This document shows, piece after piece, positions 26,199-44,473 of a stretch of DNA of 64,000 nucleotides. A program made the position numbers and the translations under genes. Where the stretch lies: contig CAZAUR010000018.1 of NCBI GenBank assembly GCA_964488255.1, forward strand, positions 6,596 through 70,595. The letters are read 5' to 3'. Below the pieces are notes generated by a model. That model searched no databases. It was not told where the DNA came from and saw only the letters and a program-made list of their open reading frames with translations. This DNA comes from an uncultured Spirochaetaceae bacterium (GTDB taxonomy: Bacteria > Myxococcota_A > UBA9160 > UBA4427). Position 1 is the stretch's first letter, and each line of letters begins with the position of its first letter.

Positions 26199-29100
26199 TT
26201 GCCTCATTCCCATGAACGAGAGGGCGATGCTTCTCGTGACCTCGATTCCGCTGAACGATCCATTCGCGAAGTGGTTCTCCACGCCGCTCATCTATTGCCG
26301 GCACAAGGTTCGATCGAGGTCTTCGTCCACCACAACACCCTTCACGCGCTCGCGGGTCACGCGTTTCATGAGGGCGTAAAGCGTGGACAGGAACGGTTCG
26401 GCGGGAATCCCTATTTGTCCGAGGTCAGATACGGAGAACTCCTTCGGAGCGGCCGAATCGTTGCGTCGGATCTGGACTGGGTCATCTCGGGCGATGTAGA
26501 CGCTCCGCCCGAGGAGACGATTGCCGGGTTGTGCTCCCGACTCGAGCTTCGGCGAGCCATGCTCTATCACCCTGTCCGCGAACACTCCGAAGCCGAGCTA
26601 GCGTGGACACTCTTCGAGACGGATGCGCTCGTTCGGTTCGACCGCGAGGTCTCCGAATCGAAGCGAACACGTGAGATAGGCGAAACCAATCGTTGGCTTC
26701 TCGATGCGTCATGCGACGCCGAGACCATGGACTTCGCCTCGAAATCAGTCGGGCGCCGAAGAGGTGATCGACCCGGCGAGTGGTCCGACGAGGCGTGGGA
26801 GCGCGTCACGCTCGCACTTCTCTGGGAAGCGTGTCGACGCGGGGTCGAGAATCATACGACTCGACCTCGACCCGCGTCGACGTATCGGACACCTGTCGAA
26901 ATGGTTCGCGTCGCGACGGGTCACGACGCCAACCGATACGTCTTCGACGTGCTCATTCGATTCTGTGGGAGCTACCTGGATCAAGGGTATGCCGAATGGT
27001 CGTTGCCGAAGCGCGAGGCGGGGATCTACCGATCATTCCTGGCCCTTTTCGGATCCGGGAGCGCGTTCGGAGACGCATGGATGAGCGGCCTGCAGTCCGA
27101 GCTCCGGGAGCGCCAGAGATCAGGCGTGTCGGCGGAAGCGTCCATTCTCCGGTCGCTCGACGAGCTGGGCATCGCGGAAGAGGACCGCGAAGAGTACGTG
27201 ATTCGCACGCTCCTCTCGCTTCGAGGGTGGGCGGGCATGGTGTGGGAGATGGAGAACGCAGCTGCCTGGGTCGTCAAGCCGGCTCCTCCGGGTTCGTTGG
27301 TTGGCTATCTGGCTGTTCAGCTCCTCCTCGAGCAACAGGCGGTTGCTCACATTGCGAGGCAATCGTTCGGAAGCGGGGGTTCGATCGGAGAGCTTCTCGC
27401 CAGCGTGAGGACGGAGGGGCACGAGGACGCGTCGCGCTCGGCCGAGCGCCACGCGTATCAGATCTTTCGCGTCGGGCAGGCGCTCGGCTGGTCGGCGAGT
27501 GCGTTGTCCGAATTGAGCGCCGAGCAATGGTCGGCGCTGGTCTCGGAAGTCGAAGACTTCGACGAGATCGCGCGTCGGCGGACGATGCACGAGGCGTTCG
27601 AACGGGGCTACCGAGTTCATGCACTCGATGCTTTTGCCAACCACGCTCGTTCGATCAGCGATTCACGCTCAGACGAGCGCCCGTCTCATCCGTCGTTTCA
27701 GATCGTCTGCTGCATCGACGATCGAGAGGAGTCGTTTCGACGCCATCTCGAGGAAATCGACCCGACATGCGAGACGTTCGGCGCCGCGGGCTTCTTCGCC
27801 GTTGCGATTCAATACCGGGGCGCGACGGATGGCTTCTACAAACCCTTGTGTCCGGCAGTCATCGAGCCGGATCACTATGTGGAGGAGCATGTCGGCTATT
27901 CATTCGAGGGCGTACATCGCGCTCGCTCTGATCTGCGGAGTCGCCTCGGTCGAGCGCAGTACTACTTCCATACACGGAGCCGTACCTTCTTTGGAGGCAT
28001 CGCGACCGGAATCGTTGGTTCTCTCGCGACCGTCCCGCTCGTCTCGCGAGTCGTGTTTCCGCACCTGACCGCGCGGGTGCGACGTCGGTTCGGCCATCTC
28101 CTGCAGCCGCCGATCACACAGCTTCACCTACACCGCCACGAGGATCCGCCCGGTCCTGATGGAGGGCACGTCGGTTTCGTTCGAGACGAGATGGCAGAAG
28201 TCGTCACTCGGCTGCTCCAGGACATCGGCCTCACTGCGACGGCGGACTTCTCACGCCTCGTGATCATCTGCGGCCATGGGTCGTCGAGTCTCAATAATCC
28301 GCACGAATCGGCCTATTGCTGCGGCGCTTGTGCCGGGAAGCGCGGGGGGCCGAACGCGCGCGCGTTCGCCGAGATGGCGAACGATTTCCGCGTTCGAGTG
28401 CTCGTTGCGGAGCGCGGGATCGAGATCCCCGAAGAGACAGTCTTCATCGGCGCGTATCACAACACATGTGACGACTCCGTCGTCTACTTCGATCTGGACC
28501 GGCTTCCGTCGTCGCATCGGGATGCGTTCGAAGACACGCGACGGCATGTCGAGGAGGCACGGCGGCGGAACGCTCATGAGCGTTGCCGTCGATTCGGATC
28601 GGCCGCGCTGGACCTCGATCTCGAGGGCGCTCTCCGACATGTCGAGGCTCGCTCGCAGGATCTCGCGCAGGCTCGACCCGAGTACAACCACGCGACGAAT
28701 GCATTGTGTCTCGTCGGGCGTCGGGCCTGGAGTCGAGGGCTATTTCTCGACCGGCGCGCGTTTCTGACTTCGTACGATCCGGCGCAGGACGACGACCAGT
28801 CGTCGGTTCTGCTGCGGATTCTCTCGGCCGCGATCCCCGTGTGCGCGGGGATCAGCCTCGAGTACTACTTCTCGTGCGTGGATTTCGTGACCTACGGGTC
28901 CGGAAACAAGCTCCCCCACAATTTGATTTCGATGCTGGGCGTGATGGAAGGGGCGTCGAGTGACCTGCGTACCGGGCTCTATCAGCAAATGGTCGAGATC
29001 CACGAACCACTCCGACTGCTCTTCGTGATCGAGACGACGCCGGACGTCATGTTGTCGATCATGGATCGCAACGAGGACATCGGACGGCTCTGTCGAGGTG

Positions 29101-29288
29101 GCTGGATCTAGTTGGCGGTCATCGATCCGAAGTCATCGGTGATACGGGTCTTCCGCGACGGTGCTTTTGAAGCGTACGAGCCGTCGTCCGAGACGTTGCT
29201 GGACGCGCCGTCCTCGCTCGAGTGCTACGAGAATTCAAGGGACCACGCGCCCATTCGAGCGGTGCCTTCGGCCGCTCCTCGATTCTGA
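26199..29288 (+). pseudogene. dabA: DUF2309/UPF0753 (DabA/MpsB, beta-carbonic-anhydrase-like subunit of an inorganic carbon pump), TAG at 29109-29111
   Basis: LPAQGSIEVFVHHNTLH, CCIDDREESFRRHLE, ETFGAAGFF, GHGSSSLNNP..SAYCCGAC.G..GG.NAR, LFLDRRAFL.SYD, INLEYYFS-like ISLEYYFS. Collinear coding continues 59 codons past the TAG. Confidence 0.92.
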
Positions 29289-29603
29289 TACCAGCGCGCA
29301 CAGGCGGGCCGATGTGCCCGCCGCGCGGGCCCCGTCGGGCAGCGGGGCTTTCAGAGCGCGCGAGCCACGAAGCGTGTACGCATGGGCGTCGAACTCGGCA
29401 GCGACCCCGCGTTCGTCGAAGGCACGTCGCAGCACCGTCTTCGCCTCGGGTTGCCTCGCGTCGCCGTACGCTGTGACTGAGAAAGGGGAGGGGGCATCGA
29501 TTCGGGAGCCAGAAGATGCTGCCTGTCCACGCGACCGATGATCAGCCGTCCGCGATGCATGGAAAGAGGCCCCGGCGCCGATGCGGCCCGCGCTGGCGGC
29601 GGA

Positions 29604-29615
29604 CCCCCCCCCCCC
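29604..29615. repeat. C12/G12 homopolymer
   Basis: 12 consecutive C in the gap between the dabA and HgcAB-like gene ends. Confidence 0.8.
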
Positions 29616-29661
29616 GCGCCGTCGTCGACCTCCAACACGACGCCTCGGCTCGCGACCCGAA

Positions 29662-30756
29662 TCAGCCCGTGACGACGTTCCGTTTGCCGAGCAGGTTGAG
29701 CTTGAAGCGGCGAATCGTATCGGGTTCGATCCGTTCGCCCGTCTCGGACTCGAGGTAGAGCGCGTCCTTCGGACATTGCACGACGCACGCGCCGCAGCGG
29801 ATGCAGCGATCGTCGTGCGCGAGCACGACTTTTCGGCGGGCTTCGTCCTTCTCGAAGCAGGCTTCGGGACAGACTTCCCAGCATCGAAAGACGCCCTTGC
29901 AGGCCTCCTCGTCGAAGGTGATGTGCCACTTGCGCTCTTCGAAGTGGCTGCCGCCCTCGAGGGGGGTGGAGCCGGCGTAGTCGGCGGTCAACAGGCCGGT
30001 CAGGAATCCGGGTAGGAGGACGGCCGCGGCGAGTGCCGCGCCGCCGCCACCGGCGGTGATCGTCGCGATGAGAGACGCGGCGATCGAAGTCGTGAGCAGG
30101 AGCCCCCGCCGCGCCGGGCCGAACTTGTCATAGAGGGTGAAGACCGCGATCGACATCGCCACCACGAGTGCGAGACACGGCAAGGTCCACCCGGGTGCGA
30201 GCCAGGCGGCGATCCCCGCGATCACGAGGGCGGTCGGCGTTGCCCACATCAGCGCCATCTGAAGGCGGTCGCGAAGGGGAAACTCGACGCGTCGCATCCC
30301 GGCCGTCTTCGTACCCGTCGCGAGATAGGCGGGGATGTCGCGCATGTCCACGGGACCGAAACGGACCCTCCAGCGACTTCGTCGAAAGACGTCGAGGGCG
30401 AGCACCCCGGTGGCGGCGAGCTGAGGGAGGATGACGTCTCGGCGGTCCACCTTCTCCGCGATCCCCGAAGTCTTGAGCGCCGTCACCACCTGGTGCGTCG
30501 TCAGGTGTCCACCCGAGGAAGCGCACCACACGTTGATGCCACCCGACGGGGCGATGAGCAACCATGCGTCGATGCCCTGCAGGCTCCGCTCGAGACGGCG
30601 CACGGTGAGATCGAAGTTGCACGTCAGCAGCACGGGGCTCGACGCATCGGGCTCTCCGATCGCCCGGAGGCCGGGTTCCGTCGGCCATGGAAAGAGGCGG
30701 AACGCCGTCTGCAAGAACTCCCTCGCCGCATCGCCGATCGTTCGAGCGAGGCTCAC
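29662..30756 (-). CDS. HgcAB-like fusion: corrinoid-binding (CdhD/HgcA-like) domain + TM region + ferredoxin
   Basis: PVLLTCNFDLT, AWLL...SGGINVWCASSGG, VILPQLAA.G, FGPV...DIPAYL, about 4 TMs ending DYAGSTP, then CKGVFRCWEVCP and CIRCGACVVQCP. GTG start overlaps the methyltransferase stop. Confidence 0.85.
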   Translation of the reverse strand: MSLARTIGDAAREFLQTAFRLFPWPTEPGLRAIGEPDASSPVLLTCNFDLTVRRLERSLQGIDAWLLIAPSGGINVWCASSGGHLTTHQVVTALKTSGIAEKVDRRDVILPQLAATGVLALDVFRRSRWRVRFGPVDMRDIPAYLATGTKTAGMRRVEFPLRDRLQMALMWATPTALVIAGIAAWLAPGWTLPCLALVVAMSIAVFTLYDKFGPARRGLLLTTSIAASLIATITAGGGGAALAAAVLLPGFLTGLLTADYAGSTPLEGGSHFEERKWHITFDEEACKGVFRCWEVCPEACFEKDEARRKVVLAHDDRCIRCGACVVQCPKDALYLESETGERIEPDTIRRFKLNLLGKRNVVTG

Positions 30757-31412
30757 GGAGCGACCTCGGCGACGATCAGGGCGAGACTGCCGAGCATGAA
30801 TCGATGCTCGTGACGCGGCGTGAATCCTGCCCGTCGGATCTCCTGCGCGAGATTCGCGATCGGCCGCGAGACTTCCCCGACGAGCAGCCATCCGAGCGCC
30901 GACTGTGGCAAGCGCCAAACGCGTTGGGCCCAACGCCGCAGTCCGGGTGGCGCGTGCACTTCGTCCGCCACCACCAGCCGCCCCCCCGTCGCCAGCAGCC
31001 GCGTGCATGCAGTCAGCACGAAGGTGCGCTCGTTGGAAGACATGTCCGACAGACACAAGGAGATCACGATTGCGTCGAAATCCGCTTCGGGCAAGCCATC
31101 GACCTCGGCCGCGGTCTGCTCGAGCCAGCGCACATCGGTCTCGCCGGCGGGGGAGAGTCGCTGGCGAGCCTGCTCGATCATGTCCGGCGATTGGTCGACG
31201 GCCGTGACCCGAGCGCCGCGGGCTACGAGCAGCGCGGTGACGGTTCCGGTCCCGGAGCCGATCTCGAGGACGCGGTCGCCAGGCTCGGCAACCGCCGCCT
31301 CGGTGGCAGCCGCATGGAGCTTCGCCACCTGACCGAACGTGATGAGACGCATCCCTGCGTCGTAGCGTTCGGGCGAGCCTTCCAACCAGCGCATGAGGGC
31401 GAGTGAACTCAT
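30753..31412 (-). CDS. Class I SAM-dependent methyltransferase (corrinoid-protein-associated, CpaM-like)
   Basis: LM..LE..P.RYD.G.RL.TFG N-terminus, motif I VLEIGSGTG, AVDQSPDM, LATGGRLVVADE. Confidence 0.88.
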   Translation of the reverse strand: MSSLALMRWLEGSPERYDAGMRLITFGQVAKLHAAATEAAVAEPGDRVLEIGSGTGTVTALLVARGARVTAVDQSPDMIEQARQRLSPAGETDVRWLEQTAAEVDGLPEADFDAIVISLCLSDMSSNERTFVLTACTRLLATGGRLVVADEVHAPPGLRRWAQRVWRLPQSALGWLLVGEVSRPIANLAQEIRRAGFTPRHEHRFMLGSLALIVAEVAP

Positions 31413-31990
31413 GGGGTGACCATCCGCCGAGTCAGTTGGACGAGGTCGCGCGTAAGATCTTCGGGATCAGGAAACGCGGCTTCGTCGATGAAGTATTGCA
31501 GCAGCAACCCATCGATCGCCCCGATCAGGACCGAGGCCTGGGCGGACGCGGACGGTCGGGCTGCGAGGGTTCCGTTCCGCTGCCCTTCGCGGATCACGGC
31601 AGCGAGATCACGCCGCGCCGCGCGGAAGAACCCGCCCATCTCACGAGCATCCTCGAGGCGCAGGTCCATCAAGACCCGGCCGAAGGCGGCCCACTCGGGA
31701 AACAACGCCGCGCAAGCAGCGGCAAGTCGTTCGATGCGCGCGAGCGGAGTGCCCTCGCCTCCGAGGCACGCGCGAAACAACGCGCGTTCCTGGTCGAGCA
31801 TCTCGCTCACCATGTCGGCGAGCAGCGCATCCTTGTCGGGGTAGTAGTGGTAGAGGCTGGAGCGCCCCATGCCGGCCGAATCGGCGACGTGGGTGAGGCC
31901 GGTACCACGGACGCCGCGCTCCGCGAACACGCGGCGTGCCGCGCTGCGGATTACTCGTCGCTGGCTCGAGGGATCGACGATCTTCGGCAT
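31409..31990 (-). CDS. TetR/AcrR-family regulator
   Basis: MPKIVD....R..I..AARRVFAERG..GT.L..VA..AGMGRSSLYHYY.DK..L. Its stop overlaps the methyltransferase ATG. Confidence 0.93.
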   Translation of the reverse strand: MPKIVDPSSQRRVIRSAARRVFAERGVRGTGLTHVADSAGMGRSSLYHYYPDKDALLADMVSEMLDQERALFRACLGGEGTPLARIERLAAACAALFPEWAAFGRVLMDLRLEDAREMGGFFRAARRDLAAVIREGQRNGTLAARPSASAQASVLIGAIDGLLLQYFIDEAAFPDPEDLTRDLVQLTRRMVTP

Positions 31991-32017
31991 CGGGAAGCTC
32001 CCGAACCCCAGCATCGC

Positions 32018-32045
32018 TTATTTCGACACTGATGTCCATAAAAAT
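32018..32045. promoter_or_regulatory. Candidate TetR operator / promoter
   Basis: AT-rich island with a GACA-ctga-TGTC dyad (32025-32036). It overlaps a TGGACA -35-like hexamer on the minus strand, about 35-48 bp upstream of tetR. Confidence 0.35.
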
Positions 32046-32058
32046 GCGACTGGATCGG

Positions 32059-33306
32059 TCAGTTGCGCCTGCGGCGCTCCTGGCCCCGCGGTGGGCGAAC
32101 GGGCGGCTTCGCGTCACCGGCTCCGTGAAGTGCGACCAACGCCAGAGCGAGCAGCGCCATGCCCCCGCCGAACCAGAAGGTCGCCGGGGCGCCGAGTCGA
32201 TCCCAGAGCATCCCCGCGGCCGCGCTCGCGACGAGCGCGGCGAGCCCGGAGAGCAGGTTGAAGAACCCGAACGCCGTGCCGCGGAGCTCGTCCGGTGCGG
32301 CGTTCGCGACCATCGTCGCCAGCAGTCCCTGGGTCATCCCCAGGTGCAGACCCCAGAGCCCGATTCCCACTGCGAGCACCGGCCAGCCGTCGCCGATCGC
32401 CAGAATCACGTCCGCCGCGATCAAGACAGCGAGGCCTGCGATCAGGACCGCTGCAGGGGGGAGCTTGTCCGACAGCTTCCCGAACGGGTAGGCCGTCGCG
32501 GCGTAGGCGGCGTTCATCACGACCAGGACCAGCGGCACAGAGGACAGCGCGAGGCCGGCCTGCTGGGCGCGCAGTACCAGAAAGGCTTCACTGAAACGCG
32601 CGAGCGCGAAGGCGGTCCCGATCGCGACGACGGACCAATACGCGCCGGTCAAGCGCGGGATCGCCCGCCAATCGACGGGGTGCCCGGGTTTCGCATCGGT
32701 CGTATGTCGAGGCTCTCGCACTCCGATCCAGAGTACGGCCACGGCGAGCCCGGCCGGGATCACGGCGATCCAGAACACGGCGCGAATATCTTCGGCCATG
32801 AGCATCATCAGCCCCATCGCGAGCAGCGGACCGATCAGCGCGCCGACCGTGTCCAGCGCCTGTCGCAATCCGTAGGCCGCGCCGCGAACCGCTCGTGGCG
32901 TGAGGTCCGCGATCAGCGCATCCCGCGGCGCCCCACGAATCCCCTTGCCTGTACGATCCACGAAGCGGGCGGCGAAGACCATGCCGACGCTGCCGGACAG
33001 GGCGAATAGCGGCTTGCTGAGCGCGCCCAGGCCGTAGCCCAGGACCGCGAGCGCCTTGCGGCGACGGAGATAGTCACTCGCGTAGCCCGAGAAGACCTTG
33101 ACGATCAGCGCGGTTGCCTCGGCGACCCCCTCGATCAGACCGATCGTGAGCGCGCTCGTACCGAAGCTCACCATGAGGAAGACGGGGAGCAGGCTGTGAA
33201 TCAGCTCCGAGGAGACGTCCATGAGCAGACTGACGAAGCCGAGCACCCAGATGCCGCGCGGAATCGTCCCCGCGTGCTCGACTTCTCGTACGTCCACGGG
33301 TCTCAT
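32059..33306 (-). CDS. MFS transporter
   Basis: IWVLGFVSLLMD.SSE.IHSLLP, GYASDYLRRRK, DR.GKGIRGAPRDAL.AD, about 12 TMs. Confidence 0.93.
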   Translation of the reverse strand: MRPVDVREVEHAGTIPRGIWVLGFVSLLMDVSSELIHSLLPVFLMVSFGTSALTIGLIEGVAEATALIVKVFSGYASDYLRRRKALAVLGYGLGALSKPLFALSGSVGMVFAARFVDRTGKGIRGAPRDALIADLTPRAVRGAAYGLRQALDTVGALIGPLLAMGLMMLMAEDIRAVFWIAVIPAGLAVAVLWIGVREPRHTTDAKPGHPVDWRAIPRLTGAYWSVVAIGTAFALARFSEAFLVLRAQQAGLALSSVPLVLVVMNAAYAATAYPFGKLSDKLPPAAVLIAGLAVLIAADVILAIGDGWPVLAVGIGLWGLHLGMTQGLLATMVANAAPDELRGTAFGFFNLLSGLAALVASAAAGMLWDRLGAPATFWFGGGMALLALALVALHGAGDAKPPVRPPRGQERRRRN

Positions 33307-33540
33307 GTCGATGGATCCACTCCGAATTGATCACGGCGCGGGGATGGTCGGCGCTCGACTGGGCGCAGTTCTCCCGACCCACGCCTTTCTTGCCGGAGGA
33401 TCGACTCGGCGCTCGGTCCGATTCGCGCCCATCTTCGCCTCGGTCCTGGTGCGGTCCCACGACAGGCGTGGACGCATGGGAGCAGTGAGTGCGATCCAGC
33501 CCATGAGCTGCAAGGTCTCGCACGCCTCCCCGTCCGGGCG

Positions 33541-35001
33541 CTAATCCAACTCGACCGTAACCTGTTTCTCGGCAGCGGCGTGATGCGCGTCGGCCTCCTC
33601 GGCCTCCTCGGCCTCGTCAGGGGCGCGCAGGTCGCTTCGAAGCATGATGATCTCCTCGGCAGCGTGGTAGCGAGAGGCGACCCCCGGCTGAGGGTAGAGC
33701 CCACCCCCGAGCATCATCGCCGAGAGGACGATGATCAGGACACGCTCGCTCGGCCGACAACCCATCGTCGCGGTCGCCTCTCGGCGCACACCCGTGAATA
33801 CCCGAAAATACGCCTGCACGACGGCGATTCCGTTGAGCATCGCGGCGATGACGACGCTCAGTCCGATCAGCGGATACACGTCGACGGCGCCTTCGACGAG
33901 CAATTCGGCTCCGACGAAGCCGACGGTGCCTGGAAAGCCGACCGACGCCAGGCCGCTCAGCAGAAAGAAGCCTGAGATCAGAGGCGTGAGCTGCGACAGA
34001 CCGTGATATCCATCCAGGGAGAGTCGTCCCGTCCGGGCTTCGATGCAGCGAAGCGCGAGGCCGAAGCCGCCCAGCGAGATTCCTACGGAGAGCCAGACGT
34101 AGAGCGCTCCGGTCAAGCCAATCGGCGTGACCATCTCCAGCCCGACGAGCACGAGCGAAGCGTGGCTCAGGAACACGAAGCAGAAGAATCGGCGCGCCTC
34201 ATGTTGGACGAGCGCCATTCCGGCGGCGTAGACGGCCGTTGCGAGAGACACGATCGCGATGCCCTGCATGCCCCAGGCGGGCGCGACTGGCAAGACGAGC
34301 CTGACTACGGCGTACGCGCCCGTCATCGGGATGACGGCAAGGAGTGCGGTCCCGAAGCCCGCTCGTTCGAAGAGCTCGGTGATCCAGCCATGGAGGGGGA
34401 AGACTCCACTCCGCAAGAGCGCTGCGAGGGTCACAACGAGCACGCCGATCGAGGAGAAGTCTTCCGTCCCGATCATCGATTGACCGCCCGTCAAGCACAC
34501 CACGAAGAGTCCCATGTAGACCCAATAGAGCCGCGCAGACCGACCGCGTCTCTGGATCTCGAGCGCGGGAGGGATCGTCGCGAGCGAGAGGAGGACGACG
34601 ATCCCCCACGGTGCACGGCAGCTGAGCAGTGCCATCAGGATGGATTCCGACACCAGCGTCGAGACGAACGAGAATCGCCGCACTTTGGTCCGGAGTGTCG
34701 TGGCGATCGTCGCGAGGTAGAGCATCGCGCCCAATGGCAGAAGCGGCGCGCTCAACTCATCGACGACGAACAGGTCTGCGTGATAGAGGCCAAACGACTC
34801 GAGCCAAGGGTCGTGCGCTTCGAAGGCATGGAGTGTCGCGAAGTCGAACCATGCCCCGATCGCGAGGAACAGTGTCGCGGCGCTGACGATGATGCTCGTG
34901 CGTCGCACAGAGTCAAAGTCGTCTATCCTGGAGACGACGATGGCGCCCACCAGCGGCACGAACGTCGCAAGCTCGAGCCAAGGGAAATGCAGGCTCTGCA
35001 T
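33541..35001 (-). CDS. NuoM-like proton-translocating antiporter-type subunit
   Basis: About 13 TMs, LFVVDELSAPL, RSG.FPLH.W, LASVG.PGT.GFVG.ELL. Coupled to the upstream NuoL-like gene. Confidence 0.8.
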   Translation of the reverse strand: MQSLHFPWLELATFVPLVGAIVVSRIDDFDSVRRTSIIVSAATLFLAIGAWFDFATLHAFEAHDPWLESFGLYHADLFVVDELSAPLLPLGAMLYLATIATTLRTKVRRFSFVSTLVSESILMALLSCRAPWGIVVLLSLATIPPALEIQRRGRSARLYWVYMGLFVVCLTGGQSMIGTEDFSSIGVLVVTLAALLRSGVFPLHGWITELFERAGFGTALLAVIPMTGAYAVVRLVLPVAPAWGMQGIAIVSLATAVYAAGMALVQHEARRFFCFVFLSHASLVLVGLEMVTPIGLTGALYVWLSVGISLGGFGLALRCIEARTGRLSLDGYHGLSQLTPLISGFFLLSGLASVGFPGTVGFVGAELLVEGAVDVYPLIGLSVVIAAMLNGIAVVQAYFRVFTGVRREATATMGCRPSERVLIIVLSAMMLGGGLYPQPGVASRYHAAEEIIMLRSDLRAPDEAEEAEEADAHHAAAEKQVTVELD

Positions 35002-36389
35002 CAGGTGGAATCCTCTAGCGAACGCGGGTAGGGAACCACGGGACGCGGTTCATGGCTGGACTCACCGGAGAGCATCGACGCGACGGCATGCTCGACGCGA
35101 TCACACCATCGAAAGAACGACACGAACGGACCGACCACGACACGGTCGAGCATTGCATCCAGGTACCCGCGCTCGAACGCGAATCGAAAGAGGCCGCGAG
35201 GTGGAGTACGCGGATTGCTCGCGTCGGATTCGCGGACGTCGCCGATATGCAGACCCATCGCGTCCTCCAGGAGCTGATAGTCCTTGAGGACGGAAGGCGC
35301 CCTCAACAGCTGCAGGGTTCGGAGGCACGCATGTCCGATCATGTGAATCAGCGCGATGTAGTAGAGACCGAATCCGATCTCGATCGCGATGATTCCAACT
35401 TGGGTCAGTGACGCGAAAGCGAGCGCGCTCTTGACATCGGTCTGCGCTCGCGATGCGACGGACCCGAAGATGGCGGAGGCCAATCCGGTCGCGAGCACGG
35501 CGAGTTGGAGCGGTACCGAAGCCGCGATCAAGGGGCTCACGCGAAGGAGGAGAAAGGGGCCGAGGTGAATCGAGAGCGCCCCGTAGAAGATCGCGCTCGA
35601 TGGAGTCGGCCCCTCCATGGCGCGCGGTAGCCATCCGGAGAAGGGGACCATGCCCGACTTGCCAGCTGCAGCCACCAGCAAGAGACCCCCAACGAGGAGC
35701 GCCGCCGATGAATCGATGGCCGAGACACCCTCGGGCCATGATCCGACGCCCATCAGTTCTTCGAAATCCCCGGCACCGGTCATGCTGTGAAGCGTCAGCG
35801 CCGCGACGAGGAATGCCGCATCCGCGGCCCGGTAGATGGCCCAGACGCGCTGTCCGTTGCGCACGGGTCCAGCGCGCTCATGAAAGTAGGCGATGAGAAG
35901 CGCCGACGAGAGACCGACGAGCTCCCAACCGAGAAAGAGTGTCTCAATCGTGCCGGCAAGTGACGAAACCACCATCCCGAGCAGAAAGAGCGCGTACAAC
36001 AGGAAGAATCTCGAGTGTCCCGGTTCGCGATGGAGGTACACGCTGGCGAACGCACCGACCGTCCCGCAAAGAACGAAAGACAGGATCACGAAGGGAACGG
36101 ACAGTCGATCGAACACGAACTTCAGATGAAAATGAAAGTGCTCCTCTGGGATCGCCACCCAGTCCCCGATGTCGATCGGAACGTGGCGCAGGTCGAAGGC
36201 CAGCATCATCCCCAGAATTCCGATGGCGGAGCCGAGTCCGATCGCAATCGTGAGCTTCGTGAGCCATTCCTGCGCGCGCTCGCTGAGATTCGAGCTGAAG
36301 AGCGCGCTCGCTGCAAAGATCGTGAGCAGAGCCGCCGGACTCGTGATCGTCACGAGGCCGAGGATCCTGAAAGTGAAATCGATCGTCAT
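35001..36389 (-). CDS. dabB: NuoL/ND5-like membrane subunit (DabB/MpsA type)
   Basis: [66 protein letters not shown]. dabA lies 5.7 kb away. Confidence 0.8.
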
Positions 36390-36463
36390 TTGCTACGTCC
36401 ATTTCGCGCCGTCGCCAGTTCGGCTCGAGCCGTGCCCCGTCTTTCGTACGGATCGGGCGCCGT

Positions 36464-36505
36464 TCTACGACCTAAGACCTAAGACCTAAGACCTAAGACC
36501 TACGA
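36464..36505. repeat. Heptamer simple-sequence repeat (CCTAAGA)4 with degenerate flanking units
   Basis: TCTACGA-(CCTAAGA)x4-CCTACGA, 75 bp upstream of the dabB start. Confidence 0.9.
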
Positions 36506-37002
36506 TCATTCTGTTAGGCACCCGCGGCGCGACGTGCTTCGGCCATTCGAGCGGCGACTACCGGCGAGCCGCGAAGAGTATTGCATCGAAGTCCGCCATT
36601 CGATAGCCGTGAACCCCGCCGACTCGCGAGGGTGCGGTCATCAATGCCCGTCGAGCTTCGGGGGAGGAGGCTTCGAACATTCACGTACTCTCGAATCATG
36701 TGGTGCAGGCGACGCGCGCGGCCCGAGTGACGCATGCAATGCTCACCGCTGCGGCATTCGCATCGGCGGAGTTCTCGGATGTCCGTGAACGACGACGGCT
36801 CCGGCGCATCGAAGTCAGCCCGATGGCCGCGAGGTGAATCGAGCTCGCAGTCGCACGGCGCAGTCGCCCTGAAGGGGGTCGAGGACGGCGTCGCGACTGA
36901 AGTTGCCGACGAGGTTCCGTGCGAGAAGGTCGAATCGAAGTCGACCACGGAGTGCGGGCGTGACGTGTCCTCATAGGCAGCGCTCGAAGGAACCGCGTTG
37001 GT

Positions 37003-38496
37003 TCAATTCACCGGCACCCGCTGCAGATACGCGCTCGCTTCGCTGATCCACCGTGCAAGAAACTCGGGCGTGTCCAGCCCCAGCCAGACGGTCAAGGCCA
37101 TGCACAGCAAAATGGGGGCCACCATCGCGAAATCGTCGTCGAACCTCGACCGGCTGACCGTCCCTCCCTCTCCCTGGTCGCCGGCATCGCCCGACGTCGG
37201 ATTGGGCGCGGGGCCGAAGCAGCAGCCGATGATCGTATTGCCCATGCCGAAAAACACCAGAAGCAGCAGGATCAGGAACAGCACGCCCGCGGCCGTGTGA
37301 CCCGTAGTGAAGGCACCGCTGAGAATCTGGTACTCGCTCACGAAGGGGCCAAACAATGGCGAGCCGGTGATCGCGAAGAACCCGACGAGCAGGAGCGAGC
37401 CGCTCCAGGGCAGCCGTTTGAGTACGCCCTGCACCTCGTCGGTGGTCTTGCTTCCGTAGACCCGATGGATGTTGCCTGCCGCGAGAAACAATGCAGCTTT
37501 GCAGATGCCATTGTGAATCATGTGCAAGAGAGCTCCGCTCGCCGCGAGCCCTCCGATGCCCATCCCGAAGACGAGCATTCCCATGTGCTCGACGCTCGAA
37601 TAGGCCAACAGACGTTTGATGTCCTTCTGCCGCGACATGAACACCGCGGCCGTTGCCATCGACAAGACCCCCATGAAGATCAGCATCTGTCGAGAATAGA
37701 CGTCGTCATGAGCGATGTGGGCGATGTGGAAGAAACGGAGAACGCACAGGAATGCGCAACTCGTCAGGCCGCCCGCCAGCAGCGCTCCGACGATGCCAGG
37801 TGCTTCGCCGTAGGCGTCCGGCTTCCAGGTGTACATGGGCGAGAGGCCCATCTTCGTGCCGTAGCCGACCAGAAGCAGAACGAACGAAGCGTGTAGCCAT
37901 GGCCGCGAGAGTGCGTGTGAATGCTCGACCAGCTCGTCGAACATGAGCGTCGATTCCGAGCCCGCTTGCAACATCGAGTAGGCCAGGAAGAACGAGCCGA
38001 GTAGAGCCAGGGCGATGCCGACCGAGCAGATCATCAAGTACTTCCAAGTGGCTTCGAGCGACTTCGAGTTGTGCGTGAAGTAGATGCAAGGTGCCGTCGC
38101 CAGCGTCGTCGCTTCCATCGCGATCCACATCAATCCGAGGTGATGCGACAGGGTGACGAGCGTCATCGTCGCCAGCGCCAGCAGCAGGCAGGCGCAGAGT
38201 GCTCGATTGTCGCGCTCGGCTCTCGCCCGGAGGTAGCCTGGCGCGTAGGTTGACAGCAAGAAGAAGAGCAGACTCACGAACCCCGTGAACAGTCGGCTGA
38301 GTGGGTCGATCGCCAGCCAACGTTCGAACATCCACTGCTCTCCCTGCGCCAGCTGCCAAGATGTCAGCGCTAAGTGGGCCGCACCCGTGAGTGGCAGCAG
38401 CAATGGACGGACGCGATTCGACGGAATTGCGAACGCCAGCCCGGCGGCGAGGACCGGGAGCAGGATGAGGATCAGCAACATGAGAGTGCCATCCAT
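37003..38496 (-). CDS. hyfF: Hydrogenase-4 component F-like membrane subunit, copy 2
   Basis: HHLGLMW.AMEATTLA, SLEATWKYL, GYGTKMGL.PM, KRLLAYSSVEHMG, FFAITGSP. Confidence 0.88.
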   Translation of the reverse strand: MDGTLMLLILILLPVLAAGLAFAIPSNRVRPLLLPLTGAAHLALTSWQLAQGEQWMFERWLAIDPLSRLFTGFVSLLFFLLSTYAPGYLRARAERDNRALCACLLLALATMTLVTLSHHLGLMWIAMEATTLATAPCIYFTHNSKSLEATWKYLMICSVGIALALLGSFFLAYSMLQAGSESTLMFDELVEHSHALSRPWLHASFVLLLVGYGTKMGLSPMYTWKPDAYGEAPGIVGALLAGGLTSCAFLCVLRFFHIAHIAHDDVYSRQMLIFMGVLSMATAAVFMSRQKDIKRLLAYSSVEHMGMLVFGMGIGGLAASGALLHMIHNGICKAALFLAAGNIHRVYGSKTTDEVQGVLKRLPWSGSLLLVGFFAITGSPLFGPFVSEYQILSGAFTTGHTAAGVLFLILLLLVFFGMGNTIIGCCFGPAPNPTSGDAGDQGEGGTVSRSRFDDDFAMVAPILLCMALTVWLGLDTPEFLARWISEASAYLQRVPVN

Positions 38497-38677
38497 CTGG
38501 CTGATCGACTCGATGCGCCGATCGCTGCAGTCAGGTGCCGCTGCAGAAACTTCGACCGGCGGCCGCGAGACGATGTTGAGAACACGATGCGTGAAGGCGG
38601 AGACCCTCTTCGATGCGCCCGGCCCTCGATCTCGATGCAGGAATACGTCGCGCTGGGGGATCGGGTGGGTTCGCGAT

Positions 38678-40168
38678 TCAATGTGCGGCTTCCACGGCCA
38701 TCAGGATCCAGTCCCGCAAGAACGGTGGCGTGTAGAAACCCAGTATCACGACAAGCACCAGAGCAATGAATGCCGGCAGCGTGTCGCCGAGCCGCTCCCC
38801 CGCCCAATATGGAGGGTGCGTCGCAGTCGCGGGCGCCGAGCTCGAGGTCCACTCGCGCTTCTCGGCCGTGTCCGACGCATCCGACAGCTCGGGCGGTGGT
38901 CCAAGAGCGATTCGCAGCACTGTGTTCCCCATACCGACGAACACGAAGAAGAGCAGCGCGAGGAACACACAACCGGCCAGCGTCCGGCCCCCCGAGAACG
39001 CTCCGCCCAGCATCATGACCTCGCTCACGAACGGCCCGAATCCCGGTGCTCCGGTGATCGCGAAGAACCCGGCGACGAACGCCGCGCCCGACCACGGCAC
39101 GCGCCGCAGCACGCCCTTCATCTGCCGCATGTCGCGGGTGCCGTACGCGTGATACAGATTTCCAGCCGTGAGGAACAGCACGCCCTTGCACAGGCCGTTG
39201 TGCACGACGTGCAGCAGCGCGGCGATCACTCCGACGCCGCCCACGCCCAGTCCGAACGCCATCATGCCCATATGCTCGACGCTGGAATACGCAACCAGCC
39301 TCTTGATGTCCGTCTGTCGTCCGATCGATACTGCCGAGACCGCCATCGAGAATAGGCCGATGAAGATCAGCATCGGCTGAATGTCCCGTGCGTGTCCGGC
39401 CGCCGAGATGATCAGATACACGCGCAGAATGCCGAGGAACGCACAGTTCAGCAGGGCACCGGACAGGAGTGCGGAGACCACCGCTGGCGATTCGCCGTGC
39501 GCGTCCGGCAGCCACGTGTGCATTGGAGCGAGTCCCATCTTCGTGCCGTATCCAACCAGGACGAACACGAACGCTACGTGGAGCCAAGGCGCCGACAGCT
39601 CTCCAGCATGGACCATCAGGTCTTCGAACAGCAATGAGTGCAGTCCGCAGTGGAGAGAGGCGTATGCGAGACACAGCGTTCCCAGCAGCGCCAGCGCGAT
39701 GCCCACCGAGCAGAGCATCAAATACTTCCAAGTCGCTTCCAGCGCCCGCTGGGTGTGCTCGAAGTACACGCACGGAGCGGTCGCCAACGTCGTGGCTTCG
39801 ACGGCGATCCACATGAGTCCCAGGTGGTGCGCCGTGATCACAGCCGTCATGGACGAAAGCGACGCCAGAAGGCACGCGCACAGGATGCGGTTCGAGCGGC
39901 CGCCGTTGCTCCGCAGGTACGCCGGCAAGTACGTCGCCAGGATGAGAAAGAAGAGGCTGATGAACGACAGGAAGAAGCGGCTTTGTGCGTCGATTCTCAG
40001 CCAGCCCGGCGGTCCGGTCGGCAGCGGCTGTGTGACGGCAAACAGCGTCAGCAGCGCATGACACGCCGCTCCTGCCGGCACGATCCAGGGGCGCCACCGG
40101 TTCGATGGCACGGCCAGCGCCAGCCCCGCGGCGATCAGCGGCGTCAGGATCAGCACGGTTGACAGCAT
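38678..40168 (-). CDS. hyfF: Hydrogenase-4 component F-like membrane subunit, copy 1
   Basis: HHLGLMW.AVEATTLA, ALEATWKYL, GYGTKMGLAPMHTWLPDAH, KRLVAYSSVEHMG. Start placed at ATG 40168 by RBS. Confidence 0.9.
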   Translation of the reverse strand: MLSTVLILTPLIAAGLALAVPSNRWRPWIVPAGAACHALLTLFAVTQPLPTGPPGWLRIDAQSRFFLSFISLFFLILATYLPAYLRSNGGRSNRILCACLLASLSSMTAVITAHHLGLMWIAVEATTLATAPCVYFEHTQRALEATWKYLMLCSVGIALALLGTLCLAYASLHCGLHSLLFEDLMVHAGELSAPWLHVAFVFVLVGYGTKMGLAPMHTWLPDAHGESPAVVSALLSGALLNCAFLGILRVYLIISAAGHARDIQPMLIFIGLFSMAVSAVSIGRQTDIKRLVAYSSVEHMGMMAFGLGVGGVGVIAALLHVVHNGLCKGVLFLTAGNLYHAYGTRDMRQMKGVLRRVPWSGAAFVAGFFAITGAPGFGPFVSEVMMLGGAFSGGRTLAGCVFLALLFFVFVGMGNTVLRIALGPPPELSDASDTAEKREWTSSSAPATATHPPYWAGERLGDTLPAFIALVLVVILGFYTPPFLRDWILMAVEAAH

Positions 40169-40222
40169 TTGCGCCACCTCCGCTCAGCGGGCCGGCCCTC
40201 CGGCCCTTCGCGACCCGTATGC

Positions 40223-40903
40223 TCATTCTTTGAGACTCGACAGGTGTTCGATGCTCGCTTCGGGAAACGCCCGGCTCACGTGGTTGAAGATGATTCCCAT
40301 CACGAACACGCCGACGAACAGGTCCAATACGATGCCCAGCTCGACCATGATCGGCACGGCTTCGATCAGTAGCAGTCCGAAAATGAAGATGCCGTTTTCG
40401 AGCACGATGTAACCCAGCACCTGCCCGAGTGCCTCTCGGCGAGTGCTGAGCATCAGGAACCCGCACACGACCGTCGCGAGCGCGGCCGGGATCGGCAGAT
40501 GGCTGCCGTGCTCGGTCGCCATCGGCAGGTTGCGGGCGAACGCGATGGCGAGCACCGTGCCTAATGCGCCGATCAAGAGCGGCAGCACGATTCCCACCGT
40601 CGACGTCACCTGCGAACGCACGTCCGCGAGTCGCACGGCCCGCGACAGCAGCCGCGGAATCACCCATCCCTTGATTGCGACGATCGCGACCGTAAGCCCG
40701 AACAGACGCAGCATCGCGACGGCACCCATCTCATGTCCGCCCCCGAGCAGATCCGCATGCGCCACCGGATACAGAAGCCCCAGAAGTGCTCCCTGGATGG
40801 CCACGGCATTGATGACCTCTTTCAGACTGCTCACCGTCAGCACATAGAAGTTGAGCAGAAGGGCGATCACCAGTCCGGGGTCGAGTAGTAGGCCACTCAT
40901 CAT
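40223..40903 (-). CDS. hyfE: Hydrogenase-4 component E-like subunit
   Basis: AVAIQG.LL, KG.VIP.LL.RA, QVLGYIVLENGIF.FG, VELG..LDLFVGVFVMGI. Confidence 0.9.
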   Translation of the reverse strand: MMSGLLLDPGLVIALLLNFYVLTVSSLKEVINAVAIQGALLGLLYPVAHADLLGGGHEMGAVAMLRLFGLTVAIVAIKGWVIPRLLSRAVRLADVRSQVTSTVGIVLPLLIGALGTVLAIAFARNLPMATEHGSHLPIPAALATVVCGFLMLSTRREALGQVLGYIVLENGIFIFGLLLIEAVPIMVELGIVLDLFVGVFVMGIIFNHVSRAFPEASIEHLSSLKE

Positions 40904-40919
40904 CCAGTTCCATCCCGCC

Positions 40920-41849
40920 TCACGGATAACTCACCAGCAGAATCACGGCGAAGAGTGACACCACGCCTGACCCGATCAGGAGGGTCGGAACCTCCACCAT
41001 CTTCAATCGGGCCATGACCGACTCGACGGTTCCGATCAGCACGCCGACGAGCAGCGTTCCCAACAGGAATACCACCCAGTCGACGATTGGGCTCCCCGTG
41101 GCGAAGGGCAGAACGAGGTTCACGATCATTCCGGCGAAGACGAACAGTTTGATCGAGGCTCCGTAGACGATCGCTCCGAGAGCGGGTCCGCTGTGGTCGA
41201 GCACCATGACTTCGTGAATCATCGTCAGCTCGAGGTGCGTGTTCGGGTCGTCGAAAGGGATGCGCGAGTTTTCGACGAGCAGCACCGCGAACCAGCTCGC
41301 CACGACCAGCAGCAGCGGCGCGGCGGACGTCATCCAGCCGGTTGCCACCTCATCGCCCAACAGACCGCTCATCGAGAGCGACCCGCTGATTCGCGACAGC
41401 GCCAGCAGTCCGAGAAAGAGCACGGCTTCCGCCAGGCAGGCGAATGTCGCTTCTCGCACCGAGCCCATGCCCTCGAACGCGGAACCCGTATCGAGTGCCG
41501 CGGTCATCGTGAAGAAGCGTCCCAGCGCGAGCACGTATGCGAATAGAATCACATCGCCGGAAAACGACAGCGGAGCGCTCGCGTGACCCAGCGGCACGAT
41601 CAGCCCGGCAACCAGCGCCGTCGTCAATCCGACGATCGGCCCGAACCGAAACACCCACGTCGTCGTCTCGCTGAAGACGCTGTCCTTTCGCAGGAGCTTG
41701 GCGAGGTCGTAGTACGTCTGCAGGATCGGCTGCCCGCGCCGACCCCCGAATTTCGCCTTCGTCCGGTTGATGATCCCCAGCAGCAGGGGCGGGAACGTGA
41801 GAAGGGCGACCACGTGGATCAGCGTGTGAACGGAGAGGGAGTCGAACAT
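40920..41849 (-). CDS. hyfC: Hydrogenase-4 component C / NuoH-like subunit
   Basis: GRRGQP.LQ.YYDL.KLLRK, ALDTGSAFEGMGSVREA, ENSRIPFDDPNTHLELTMIHEVM.LDHSG. Confidence 0.93.
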   Translation of the reverse strand: MFDSLSVHTLIHVVALLTFPPLLLGIINRTKAKFGGRRGQPILQTYYDLAKLLRKDSVFSETTTWVFRFGPIVGLTTALVAGLIVPLGHASAPLSFSGDVILFAYVLALGRFFTMTAALDTGSAFEGMGSVREATFACLAEAVLFLGLLALSRISGSLSMSGLLGDEVATGWMTSAAPLLLVVASWFAVLLVENSRIPFDDPNTHLELTMIHEVMVLDHSGPALGAIVYGASIKLFVFAGMIVNLVLPFATGSPIVDWVVFLLGTLLVGVLIGTVESVMARLKMVEVPTLLIGSGVVSLFAVILLVSYP

Positions 41850-41967
41850 GGTCATTCTCCGTCTACCTCGCCACGTTGGCCCGAGCGCCGGCCGCGCGAT
41901 CCGTCCACAGTCGGCCGACGGCTACGTCGCCAATGATTTCGCCGTTTCTGGTCGGGACGGTCTGTCC

Positions 41968-43968
41968 TCATGGTGAACCTCCGGGCTGCCACATCAGCAA
42001 CCCGACGACGATCACCAGGATGTACAGCAAGTACGCGTGCAGGCTGCCCTGCTGGATGTACCTCGACAGGCCGAACAACCAGGTCAGGGCGCGCGTGACC
42101 GGAAGAACTGCGTTCTCCAGCACGGTGTCGTGAACGTGACTCTCGAAGGGCGTGTCTTTCGGGAAGATCACGTCGATCTTCGGGCGATGCACGACTGGTC
42201 GCAGAGCCCAACCGAACAAGTCGACCAACCATTGCGCGAACGAACTCGATGAGTACTGCATCCGCGGCGACGGAGCCGCATAACCGCAATCCCATGTCGG
42301 TGACGACGGCGAATTGCGCACGCGCAGCAGCAGAGCGCTCGATCCGACCAGCAGGAGACCGATCAATAGCGCCGCGATGATGCTCACCGGCCCGAGCGGT
42401 GTGAGGCTGTCCAGTGGGACACCGGAGATGTCGGCCGAAGTTCCCACTGTGGCATTCGCCCACGCCCTGGCCGCGTCGTCCAGCACTGGAGCGAAGAGCG
42501 ACGGGGCGACTCCGATCAGCACGCAGCATCCGCTCAGCACCCACATCGGACCCGTCATCGCGCGACCGGACTCGTGCGCGTGAGCGGCCTTGTCTCCGCG
42601 CGGCGCGCCCAGGAACACGATCCCGTACACCTTGACGAAGCACGCGACCGCGAGCGCTCCGACCAGGGCGAGTCCAGGCGCCGCGAGCGCTGCGGCCGAG
42701 GCCAGCGACGTCGGTTCCGCCTGAATCGTCTTGAACAGGCCGAGATAGATCATCAACTCGGACACGAACCCGTTCAGCGGAGGCAGACCGCAGATCGCCA
42801 CGGCTCCGATCAGGAAGCACGTCGCGGTCACGGGCATCCGTCGACCGAGCCCGCCCATCACGTCCAGCTCGCGCGTTTCCATGCTGTGGACGACCGACCC
42901 GGCTCCGAAGAACAACAGCGACTTGAATAGCGCGTGATTCCAGACGTGCAGAAGCGCGCCGCCGATCCCCAGCAGCACCCACTCTGCGTGCCCGGTGGCA
43001 CGGCCGATCAGGGCCAGGCCCAGGCCCATCACGATGATTCCGATGTTCTCGATGCTGTGGTAGGCCAGCAGCCGTTTGAGATCGTGCTGGCCGATTGCGA
43101 ATGCGACCCCGAGAATCGCCGAGATCGTTCCAGCCGCGAGCGTGATCATCCCCCACGACAGCGGAATTTCGGGGAAGAAGGACGCGGTGCGAAAGATGCC
43201 GTAGATGCCCATCTTGATCATGACGCCGGACATGACGGCCGACACGTGGCTCGGCGCCGCGGCGTGCGCACCCGGCAGCCACACGTGCATCGGCATCAGC
43301 CCAGCCTTGGTCCCGAAGCCGAAGAGGCCAAGAGCGGCCATGATCACGGCCGCGGTCGTCGTCGAACTGGGAAGCGTCGAAAAGGCGAACGATCCCGTCT
43401 GCGAATAGAGCAGCGCGAACACGCCGAACGCGGACAGCGTGGCGAAATGGCTGGCTGCGATGTAGAGCCACGACGCCTTGCGGGTTTCTTCGATGTGGTC
43501 TTCCGTCGCCACCAGGAAGAGCGCGGAGACGGCCATCGTTTCCCAGCCGAGCAGAAATAGCAGGCCGTCTCCTGCCGCGACCAGCGTGATCATCGCAGCC
43601 GTCATCAGCCCGAGAAACAGCGATACCCGCCGAGCGTTGGGCGCCCCGTCTCCCTGCGGCCAGTACTGCAGCCCGTAGATCGAAGCGAGCCCGCACACCA
43701 GCAGAATCGGCACGAGGAAGAACGTCGACAAGCCGTCCATCGCGACGATGAAATCGAATCCGGCGATCGGCGTCGGCAGCAGGAGTGGGTCAGCCGGACC
43801 GTCTGCGTAGAAGGTCCACACGGCACCGAGTCCACAGCCACAACCGGCCACGTTGAGAAGGGTCGCCAGCCTCTGCCCGATGCTCGAGCGCACCGGCAGC
43901 AGCAGCGCAGGAAGGCCGCTCGAGGCGGTGAGTGAAGCGGCGAGAACGACGAGCGCGTGAGCGTTCAT
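41968..43968 (-). CDS. hyfB: Hydrogenase-4 component B-like subunit
   Basis: FL.GWE.MA, GFGTKAG..P.HVWLP.AH.AAPSHVSA.MSGVMIK, DLKRLLAYHSIENIGII, GLPPLNGFVSE, MQYS..SF. Start placed at ATG 43968. Confidence 0.93.
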   Translation of the reverse strand: MNAHALVVLAASLTASSGLPALLLPVRSSIGQRLATLLNVAGCGCGLGAVWTFYADGPADPLLLPTPIAGFDFIVAMDGLSTFFLVPILLVCGLASIYGLQYWPQGDGAPNARRVSLFLGLMTAAMITLVAAGDGLLFLLGWETMAVSALFLVATEDHIEETRKASWLYIAASHFATLSAFGVFALLYSQTGSFAFSTLPSSTTTAAVIMAALGLFGFGTKAGLMPMHVWLPGAHAAAPSHVSAVMSGVMIKMGIYGIFRTASFFPEIPLSWGMITLAAGTISAILGVAFAIGQHDLKRLLAYHSIENIGIIVMGLGLALIGRATGHAEWVLLGIGGALLHVWNHALFKSLLFFGAGSVVHSMETRELDVMGGLGRRMPVTATCFLIGAVAICGLPPLNGFVSELMIYLGLFKTIQAEPTSLASAAALAAPGLALVGALAVACFVKVYGIVFLGAPRGDKAAHAHESGRAMTGPMWVLSGCCVLIGVAPSLFAPVLDDAARAWANATVGTSADISGVPLDSLTPLGPVSIIAALLIGLLLVGSSALLLRVRNSPSSPTWDCGYAAPSPRMQYSSSSFAQWLVDLFGWALRPVVHRPKIDVIFPKDTPFESHVHDTVLENAVLPVTRALTWLFGLSRYIQQGSLHAYLLYILVIVVGLLMWQPGGSP

Positions 43969-44457
43969 CCGCATTCTCCGGAGTCTGCACTCTGCGATCG
44001 GTGTGATCGGTGTGATCGAACAGGAACGCGGCGGCCATTCCCGGTCGCCTGGGCGCTGCCATTTCGGCAGGCCCCCCGAACCGTCGAACATCGAACGGCA
44101 AGTTCACAAGACACTCGGCAGATTCGCAGTCTCATCTCCGACTCATCGCTTTCGGACCAATCCACCAGCTCGTTCTCCGTTCCGCGAGTGAAAACGCCCC
44201 CGTCAATCGTCGTAGTCCGTCCTGGTCGACTCGATCTCTCCCTGAATCCTGCTCGGGCGACGCGCGCCGCCTGCAAGCCGGAGCGCTGAGACCGGTAGAG
44301 TCGCTAGTATCTTCCAGGTCAGTCAAGACGACGCCTCGCAGGCGCGCAGGCACGGCTTTACTTCGACCGATGGATTCCCGCCGTGAAGGCTGGTGCGCGT
44401 CTCTGCTCGTGAGTATCGTATGCTTCCAGCCGTCTCCGCCAGCGTCAGTCGACTTGA

Positions 44458-44473
44458 TGTCATGTAGTTCACA
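44458..44473. promoter_or_regulatory. CRP/FNR-family box candidate in the divergent hyfB / PTS-IIA promoter region
   Basis: TGTCA-tgtagt-TCACA has one mismatch to TGTGA-N6-TCACA. Confidence 0.3.

Follow-up and report, generated by a model that had tools for sequence, protein, structure and literature searches.

A tetR-cpaM-hgcAB-like operon as a candidate membrane-anchored methyl-transfer system that uses S-adenosylmethionine and a corrinoid

Methylating mercury brings no obvious benefit to the cell, which puts the natural function of the HgcA superfamily in question. An operon that bears on it lies in 64,000 nucleotides of DNA from an uncultured bacterium (assembly GCA_964488255.1, contig CAZAUR010000018.1, positions 6,596 to 70,595 of the forward strand; this whole stretch is the window, and its positions are used throughout), where genes for a TetR-family repressor and a class I S-adenosylmethionine (SAM)-dependent methyltransferase, CpaM, precede a gene for an HgcAB-like fusion of a corrinoid protein and a ferredoxin. 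Judging from the sequence and its conservation, we hold it rather likely that this tetR-cpaM-hgcAB-like operon is autoregulated and forms a self-contained, membrane-anchored methyl-transfer system working with SAM and a corrinoid. The locus is a further member of a widespread family, of which both enzymes and their pairing are already curated in NCBIfam, and what the analysis of the window adds is modest, namely a conserved operator, a non-canonical Fe-S motif in its clade, and a view of how widely CpaM is linked.

The three genes lie on the minus strand in the order tetR, cpaM, fusion, and the minus-strand sequence confirmed the operon with 4-base start/stop overlaps at both joints that an earlier note on this DNA, made from the letters alone, had described. 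At the tetR/cpaM joint (31409-31412), '...atg gtc acc cca TGA' overlaps 'ATG agt tca' (ATGA), and at the cpaM/fusion joint (30753-30756), '...gct ccg TGA' overlaps 'GTG agc ctc' (GTGA). The unit and the parts of its products are as follows, lengths being given in amino acids (aa) and TM standing for transmembrane:

32021-32040, minus strand: putative TetR operator, TATGGACAtcagTGTCGAAA, an imperfect palindrome with its core at 32023-32038
31409-31990, minus strand: tetR, TetR-family repressor, 193 aa from ATG 31990, PF00440 TetR_N at 53.9 bits
30753-31412, minus strand: cpaM, class I SAM-dependent methyltransferase, 219 aa, NF043040 at 253.7 bits
29662-30756, minus strand: HgcAB-like fusion protein, 364 aa, GTG start, NF043039 at 394.1 bits
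30307-30699, minus strand: corrinoid-binding domain of the fusion, about residues 20-150, PF03599 CdhD at residues 23-144
30508-30540, minus strand: cap-helix segment GINVWCASSGG, residues 73-83, with the Cys78 codon at 30523-30525
29989-30276, minus strand: four predicted TM helices, residues 161-256, from hydropathy and AlphaFold
29737-29928, minus strand: Fe-S (ferredoxin-like) domain, residues 277-340, with Fer4 family matches at 279-340

Read from GTG 30756, the fusion is identical in length and sequence to a 364-aa database protein (P0001), and its match to the NCBIfam model 'HgcAB-like fusion protein' exceeded the cutoff of 285 bits and ran over model positions 3-350 of 350. As in that architecture, the corrinoid domain with its cap-helix Cys, the TM helices and, at the C terminus, a ferredoxin domain all belong to one chain. 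The corrinoid domain that the earlier note had recognized around GINVWCASSGG is indeed there, with a PF03599 match of 60.7 bits and Cys78 in place, and G73, I74, N75, W77, C78, A79, G82 and G83 are invariant in a 63-sequence alignment of relatives. Residues 23-144 align with 317-438 of a solved large subunit (2h9a) of the corrinoid iron-sulfur protein (CFeSP), placing Cys78 opposite the cap-helix Thr. An AlphaFold model (predicted local distance difference test 81, predicted template-modelling score 0.78) shows a Rossmann-like domain, then four long helices, and lastly a small Fe-S domain of beta/alpha type. Its TM helices span 161-186, 188-207, 213-234 and 239-256, hydropathy agrees on four, and the fourth terminates in ...LLTADYAGSTP, just as had been proposed from the letters (about four TM segments ending DYAGSTP); with an even number, the corrinoid domain and the Fe-S domain would share one side of the membrane. 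Upon searching by fold with Foldseek, we obtained as best match a deposited computed HgcAB model, 9a0b_A (E 2.9e-10, 33% identity), followed by CFeSP large subunits (root-mean-square deviation 3.0 over ~127 columns); 9a0b_A was the sole HgcA entry from the fold search, and a sequence search for a solved HgcA structure returned none.

The Fe-S domain carries the non-canonical motif. While its second motif is canonical, CxxCxxCxxxCP (C318-C328), the first reads C286-KG-V289-FR-C292-WEV-C296-P-EA-C300, and alignment with the MvhB motif CNECGDCVEVCP puts Val289 at the second Cys position. The 'two-cluster ferredoxin' of the earlier note hence holds as a fused C-terminal Fe-S domain with one canonical motif, and fails at the first motif for want of its second Cys. 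That motif may be either a three-Cys ([3Fe-4S]-like) site or one in which C300 serves as fourth ligand. The whole translation has no further Cys past C328. The linker between the fourth TM helix and this domain (residues 259-272, 29941-29982) was poorly modelled, AlphaFold giving a low-confidence stretch at 261-274; it has the clade-invariant residues D259, G262, T264, P265, H271 and F272, and the Asp is kept also in the triple fusions described below.

CpaM is a dedicated partner of the fusion. The window's CpaM exceeded the cutoff (180 bits) of the model 'corrinoid protein-associated methyltransferase CpaM' over positions 1-215 of 216, and further matched Methyltransf_25/11/12 and the UbiE family. 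Its SAM-binding motif is intact (LEIGSGTG at 49-56, then D73), and the residues invariant in the family comprise L10, E11, P14, R16, Y17, D18 and G20 at the N terminus, the SAM motif LExGxGTG (49-56), and D73. The best fold match was yeast Coq5, with a template-modelling score of 0.71-0.73 normalised to target length. For the linkage we compared 80 related loci from bacteria and archaea (~1.0 Mb), 79 of them HgcAB-like and one, L077, with a true HgcA. A same-strand CpaM lies just upstream of the fusion in 77 of the 78 HgcAB-like loci that could be assessed upstream, with an intervening gene in three and a 4-bp CpaM/fusion overlap in at least 17 of those linked; in L077, the single true-HgcA locus obtained, CpaM is absent. 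Across 72 loci, the pairwise distances between CpaM proteins correlate with those between the fusions (Mantel r 0.77, a value that 0 of 999 permutations reached).

In some relatives the two proteins have become one. Single open reading frames (ORFs) of ~589 aa that combine CpaM, the HgcA-like corrinoid/TM part and the ferredoxin occur in L060, L065, L071, L072, L073, L076 and L080. These triple fusions (e.g., L072:607-2373) form one clade, and their ferredoxin has two canonical cluster motifs; a protein search with one member yielded more than 100 full-length triple-fusion protein clusters, from Calditrichota, Marinimicrobia, Desulfobacteraceae and others, and one triple fusion, P0121, passes both NF043039 and NF043040. 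The linkage, the overlaps, the fusion clade and the correlated distances together bear out the earlier suggestion that the fusion has a methyltransferase partner. A search of one literature library found no paper describing the CpaM pairing, and on fused HgcAB it brought up only Podar 2015, Gilmour 2018, Capo 2022 and Lin 2023; NCBIfam seems to be the sole place where the pairing is on record. Two Chloroflexota ORFs, L070:3404-5395 and L079:1407-3349, join CpaM to the corrinoid/TM part only, the ferredoxin being a separate short ORF directly after; this reflects either another type of fusion or a frameshift. P0028 (636 aa), a candidate triple fusion, was rejected, because what this fusion protein carries in addition is an unrelated extension at its C terminus.

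The repressor has the N-terminal helix-turn-helix domain of the TetR family and fits no specific subfamily in Pfam or NCBIfam. Its homologues keep the N terminus MPKIVD, which corresponds to ATG 31990, with GGAG seven bases upstream. Since they begin there, the start chosen by the ORF finder (ATG 32014, 201 aa) is probably wrong, and the end of tetR at 31990 given by the earlier note is confirmed. Each of the 11 loci with tetR in the window's clade has a palindrome TCGACA-N4-TGTCGA (at most one mismatch), flanked by T/A runs, upstream of that gene, several of these loci having two palindromes 18 bp apart (double sites are present in L002 and L004, for example), and 16 of the 24 matches at this stringency in the 1.0 Mb of loci sit just upstream of tetR. 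The window's own site is ~30 nt upstream of the tetR start, directly past the stop codon of a gene for a major facilitator superfamily (MFS) transporter. As the palindrome count inside the window alone is not above chance, the case for an operator is made by the conserved position and not by the window count. This predicted operator at tetR's own promoter supports the notion that tetR, cpaM and the fusion would constitute an autoregulated unit. Of 80 HgcAB-like loci, window counted, 21 (~26%) have a tetR whose end reaches or overlaps the start of CpaM; 11 of these are among the 15 loci of the window's clade, and the other 10, one of them archaeal, lie outside it. The claim that TetR belongs to the unit can therefore be kept for the window's clade, with its conserved operator, and does not extend to the many relatives without tetR.

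We propose the following scheme. TetR would sit on the palindrome at 32021-32040 and be released upon binding a small molecule. The N-terminal domain of the fusion would hold a cobamide with Cys78 as its lower axial ligand, the C-terminal Fe-S domain would feed in low-potential electrons to give Co(I), and CpaM would supply the SAM site and the methyl group to yield methyl-Co(III). An acceptor located where the four-helix membrane domain faces the cytoplasm would then take up the methyl, which possibly leaves as a carbanion or radical, a form that SAM alone cannot supply. Such a route from SAM over cobalamin to an acceptor is plausible, and the gene linkage supports it. SAM as the methyl source fits a 2024 result on true HgcAB, in which SAM methylates the Co(I) of HgcA-bound cobalamin to a Cys-ligated methyl-cob(III)alamin while HgcB relays electrons (PMC11588087). 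That CpaM would supply the SAM site is suggested by its obligate linkage and its repeated fusion to the N terminus of the corrinoid domain.

Several points weigh against this scheme. The cap helix was modelled with low confidence in the AlphaFold models of both the fusion and the triple fusion. About three quarters of the loci have no tetR, among them L012, the closest relative among the matches listed. Gene context gives no clue to the acceptor, because there is no further conserved neighbour. We know of no class I Rossmann methyltransferase that methylates a protein-bound corrinoid. Finally, purified true HgcAB reacts with SAM in the absence of a separate methyltransferase (PMC11588087), so that CpaM may not load the cobalt and could instead act on the substrate.

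The last point leads to the alternative in which the HgcA-like domain takes the methyl group from SAM directly, and CpaM either adds a methyl group elsewhere on that same substrate or on the product, or acts on the cofactor or the protein as a modifying enzyme. It agrees with the need of purified HgcAB for SAM and reductant only (PMC11588087), and with the resemblance of CpaM to small-molecule C/O-methyltransferases, as seen in its UbiE/Coq5 matches and its Coq5-like fold. We nevertheless regard this alternative as unlikely, because obligate linkage and N-terminal fusion to the corrinoid domain suit a physical partnership better than an independent second step.

A second alternative reads the operon as an inducible detoxification cassette, in which the MFS protein encoded upstream exports or imports the substrate sensed by TetR, much as the earlier note had supposed. 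The MFS gene (32059-33306) does share the strand of tetR and lies 68 bp upstream of it. Beyond the window this arrangement did not recur: a tblastn search of the 80 loci for MFS, DabA and NuoL/M-like genes gave no match apart from a single NuoL-like one in L052, 7 kb away from the CpaM-fusion pair, and most loci have no transporter adjoining the pair. Furthermore, the MFS gene falls outside the regulated unit, since the operator comes after it and before tetR, and no second operator was found upstream of the MFS gene. Upon clustering all flanking ORFs of the 80 loci, only TetR recurred widely, and ABC-2 exporter genes appeared in a few loci. The latter are the Chloroflexota loci L037, L042 and L063, in which the pair sits inside a same-strand operon of TetR, ABC-2 permease and ABC ATPase, so that a link to efflux recurs with another type of transporter. 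These three loci form one clade and probably reflect a single event; they give a weak hint that efflux can be linked to the system and do not rescue the claim for the MFS protein. On balance we find the detoxification cassette quite unlikely, and a detoxifying role with a metal(loid) as acceptor is speculation. Of the synteny of tetR, methyltransferase, fusion and MFS gene envisaged from the sequence, the CpaM part was found almost throughout, the TetR part in about a quarter of loci and the MFS part never. The earlier note was hence partly supported: it was right on the nature of the three genes and on the methyltransferase partnership, partly right on TetR and wrong on the MFS gene, and its functional proposal was speculative.

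A third alternative, that the operon is a functional mercury methylase with HgcAB in fused form, is highly improbable. It draws on the common superfamily, the cap-helix Cys, the membrane and Fe-S domains, and the 33% identity with 9a0b_A. The curated models nonetheless side with the earlier description of the fusion as an HgcA-like paralogue and not a true HgcA: while the corrinoid-domain and HgcAB-like fusion models are passed, the score on the true HgcA model (NF040863) was 159.6 bits against a cutoff of 275, with 356.5 for the control locus L077, and that on the HgcB model (NF040864) was 49.9 against 99. Of the six accepted cap-helix motifs of HgcA (PMC10087281), none fits the sequence NVWCASSGGH, which also departs from the pattern N(V/I)WC(A/S)(A/G/S)GK. 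HgcA has five TM helices (PMC11588087), as against the four predicted here. The Cys residues C73, C94 and C95 of HgcB, which are required for mercury methylation (PMC11588087), have no counterpart in the fusion, which has no Cys beyond the second cluster motif. In a crude neighbour-joining tree with one true-HgcA locus, a long branch parts L077 from every fusion, in agreement with published trees that put fused HgcAB in a clade of its own (Lin et al. 2023). Moreover, the two cultured carriers of fused genes that have been assayed, Pyrococcus furiosus and Methanococcoides methylutens, make no methylmercury (PMC4646819, PMC5893877). Because of the model scores, the cap-helix motif, the TM count, the HgcB Cys residues, the tree and the negative cultured carriers, mercury is an unlikely acceptor; the operon does not encode an HgcAB-type mercury methylase, and its acceptor is probably something other than mercury. 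The true HgcA of L077 (Acidobacteriota), identified by the curated model, has the motif NVWCAAGK and a Cys-rich tail; its 448-aa ORF (L077:7851-9197) also spans an HgcB-like part (97 bits, cutoff 99), so that true-type HgcA and HgcB may be one ORF there.

The reverse direction, a demethylase in which a methylated substrate would give its methyl group to the corrinoid protein after the manner of O-demethylase and methylamine systems, where corrinoid proteins with reductive activators are typical, is hardly credible, since the methyltransferases of such systems are not class I SAM enzymes, the SAM-binding motif of CpaM is intact and family-invariant, and the clustering of flanking ORFs showed no linked second methyltransferase or tetrahydrofolate-related gene.

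The proposed SAM- and corrinoid-dependent system can be placed among known ones. The nearest are the fused HgcAB-like proteins of P. furiosus (Q8U2U9) and M. methylutens with their CpaM, which have the same chain of corrinoid domain, TM helices and ferredoxin and a CpaM directly upstream. The window's Myxococcota-type clade differs from other fused clades by its TetR with a putative operator, by the three-Cys first motif with C300, and by KLNLLGKR as a conserved tail sequence, whereas the others have two canonical motifs, no TetR, or a CpaM fused in-frame. With HgcA/HgcB, the system shares a CFeSP-type corrinoid domain, the cap-helix Cys, a membrane anchor, a ferredoxin partner and, probably, SAM as methyl source. 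It differs in falling below both cutoffs, in its cap-helix motif and TM count, and in a ferredoxin that is fused and has neither the C-terminal Cys pair nor a C73 equivalent; it further possesses a dedicated class I methyltransferase partner, which HgcAB does not, and the cultured carriers of its type that have been assayed are negative for mercury methylation.

The CFeSP of the Wood-Ljungdahl pathway (AcsC/AcsD, CdhD/E, with the methyltransferase MeTr and the activator RACo) resembles the fusion in its corrinoid-binding fold and in an Fe-S centre for cobalt reduction. The likeness is restricted to the C-terminal ~120 aa of the CFeSP large subunit: the match to PF03599 spans 265-386 of its 387 profile positions, and the score on the large-subunit model NF003195 was 83.1 bits against a cutoff of 306, short of a full-length match that would take in the N-terminal [4Fe-4S] and TIM-barrel parts. 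CFeSP is moreover soluble, has Thr in place of the cap-helix Cys, and receives its methyl group from methyl-tetrahydrofolate via a TIM-barrel methyltransferase and not from SAM. The reactivation of MetH by SAM and flavodoxin provides a precedent for SAM methylating a reduced, protein-bound cobalamin with the help of an electron donor, although the SAM domain there is not a class I Rossmann fold and the reaction serves for repair outside the main cycle. Class B radical SAM methylases, which depend on cobalamin and include TsrM and menaquinone methylases, likewise pass a methyl group from SAM over cobalamin to an unreactive or electrophilic centre; the window's system, in contrast, has no radical-SAM CxxxCxxC domain, and combines a separate class I methyltransferase with a CFeSP-type corrinoid domain.

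A broader reading, which we offer as possible but tentative, is that the CpaM/HgcAB-like pair represents the ancestral physiological reaction of the HgcA superfamily, in which SAM would give rise to a Cys-ligated methyl-cobalamin, and this in turn would deliver a methyl carbanion or radical to a non-mercury electrophile at the membrane, either another metal(loid) or a lipid-soluble molecule, e.g., a quinone. For the lipid-soluble kind of acceptor, the only pointer is that CpaM resembles UbiE/Coq5. Since true HgcAB uses SAM as donor and the fused proteins are linked to CpaM, the fused branch is a good place to seek the original reaction. The TetR of the window, with its defined putative operator, offers a practical handle, as its inducer could reveal the substrate; if the ancestral-reaction reading is true, the TetR ligand would point to the true substrate. 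For environmental surveys, it is confirmed that HgcAB-like fusion genes should not be counted as mercury methylators.

The fused branch is also far commoner than first reported. Described as 'rare' in 2015, the fusion was found in at least 597 species genomes when one genome per species was scanned, a protein search returned more than 1,000 relatives, and 169 representatives of 50%-identity protein clusters match at E <= 1e-30. The matches listed include Myxococcota, Chloroflexota, Acidobacteriota, Actinomycetota, Gemmatimonadota, Desulfobacterota and several archaeal phyla, and those closest to the window are Myxococcota metagenome-assembled genomes, L012 being nearest at 78% identity. Some variants stand out: P0288, P0304, P0333 and about ten similar proteins are HgcAB-like, of ~470-480 aa, with an N-terminal extension of ~145 aa that has no Pfam match, and one Thermoanaerobaculales contig carries two CpaM-fusion pairs 1.4 kb apart (L056:607-2495 and L056:3861-5581).

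Scanning 29300-33600 for promoters and terminators gave neither a sigma-70-like promoter nor a convincing terminator, the inverted repeats past the stop codon being weak. A run of 12 G (minus strand, 29604-29615) occurs ~47 nt beyond the fusion stop codon, and a weak inverted repeat at 29614-29648 flanks it. The guanine-plus-cytosine content is 0.67-0.68 over the operon and the MFS gene (window 30001-34000), as compared to 0.61-0.65 on either side, and this block may accordingly have been acquired separately. Downstream of the fusion, a convergent plus-strand gene encodes DabA (26199-29111; PF10070, 755 bits). On the other side, a long minus-strand cluster at 33541-46976 encodes membrane subunits resembling those of complex I and Mrp, with PF00361 found four times and NuoH at 40920-41855, and a plus-strand gene for a fused 30-kDa/49-kDa subunit lies in the same region at 45435-46976. 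Within this cluster, the ORFs for an N-terminal NuoL part (35001-36389) and a C-terminal NuoM part (33541-35001) abut, sharing base 35001.

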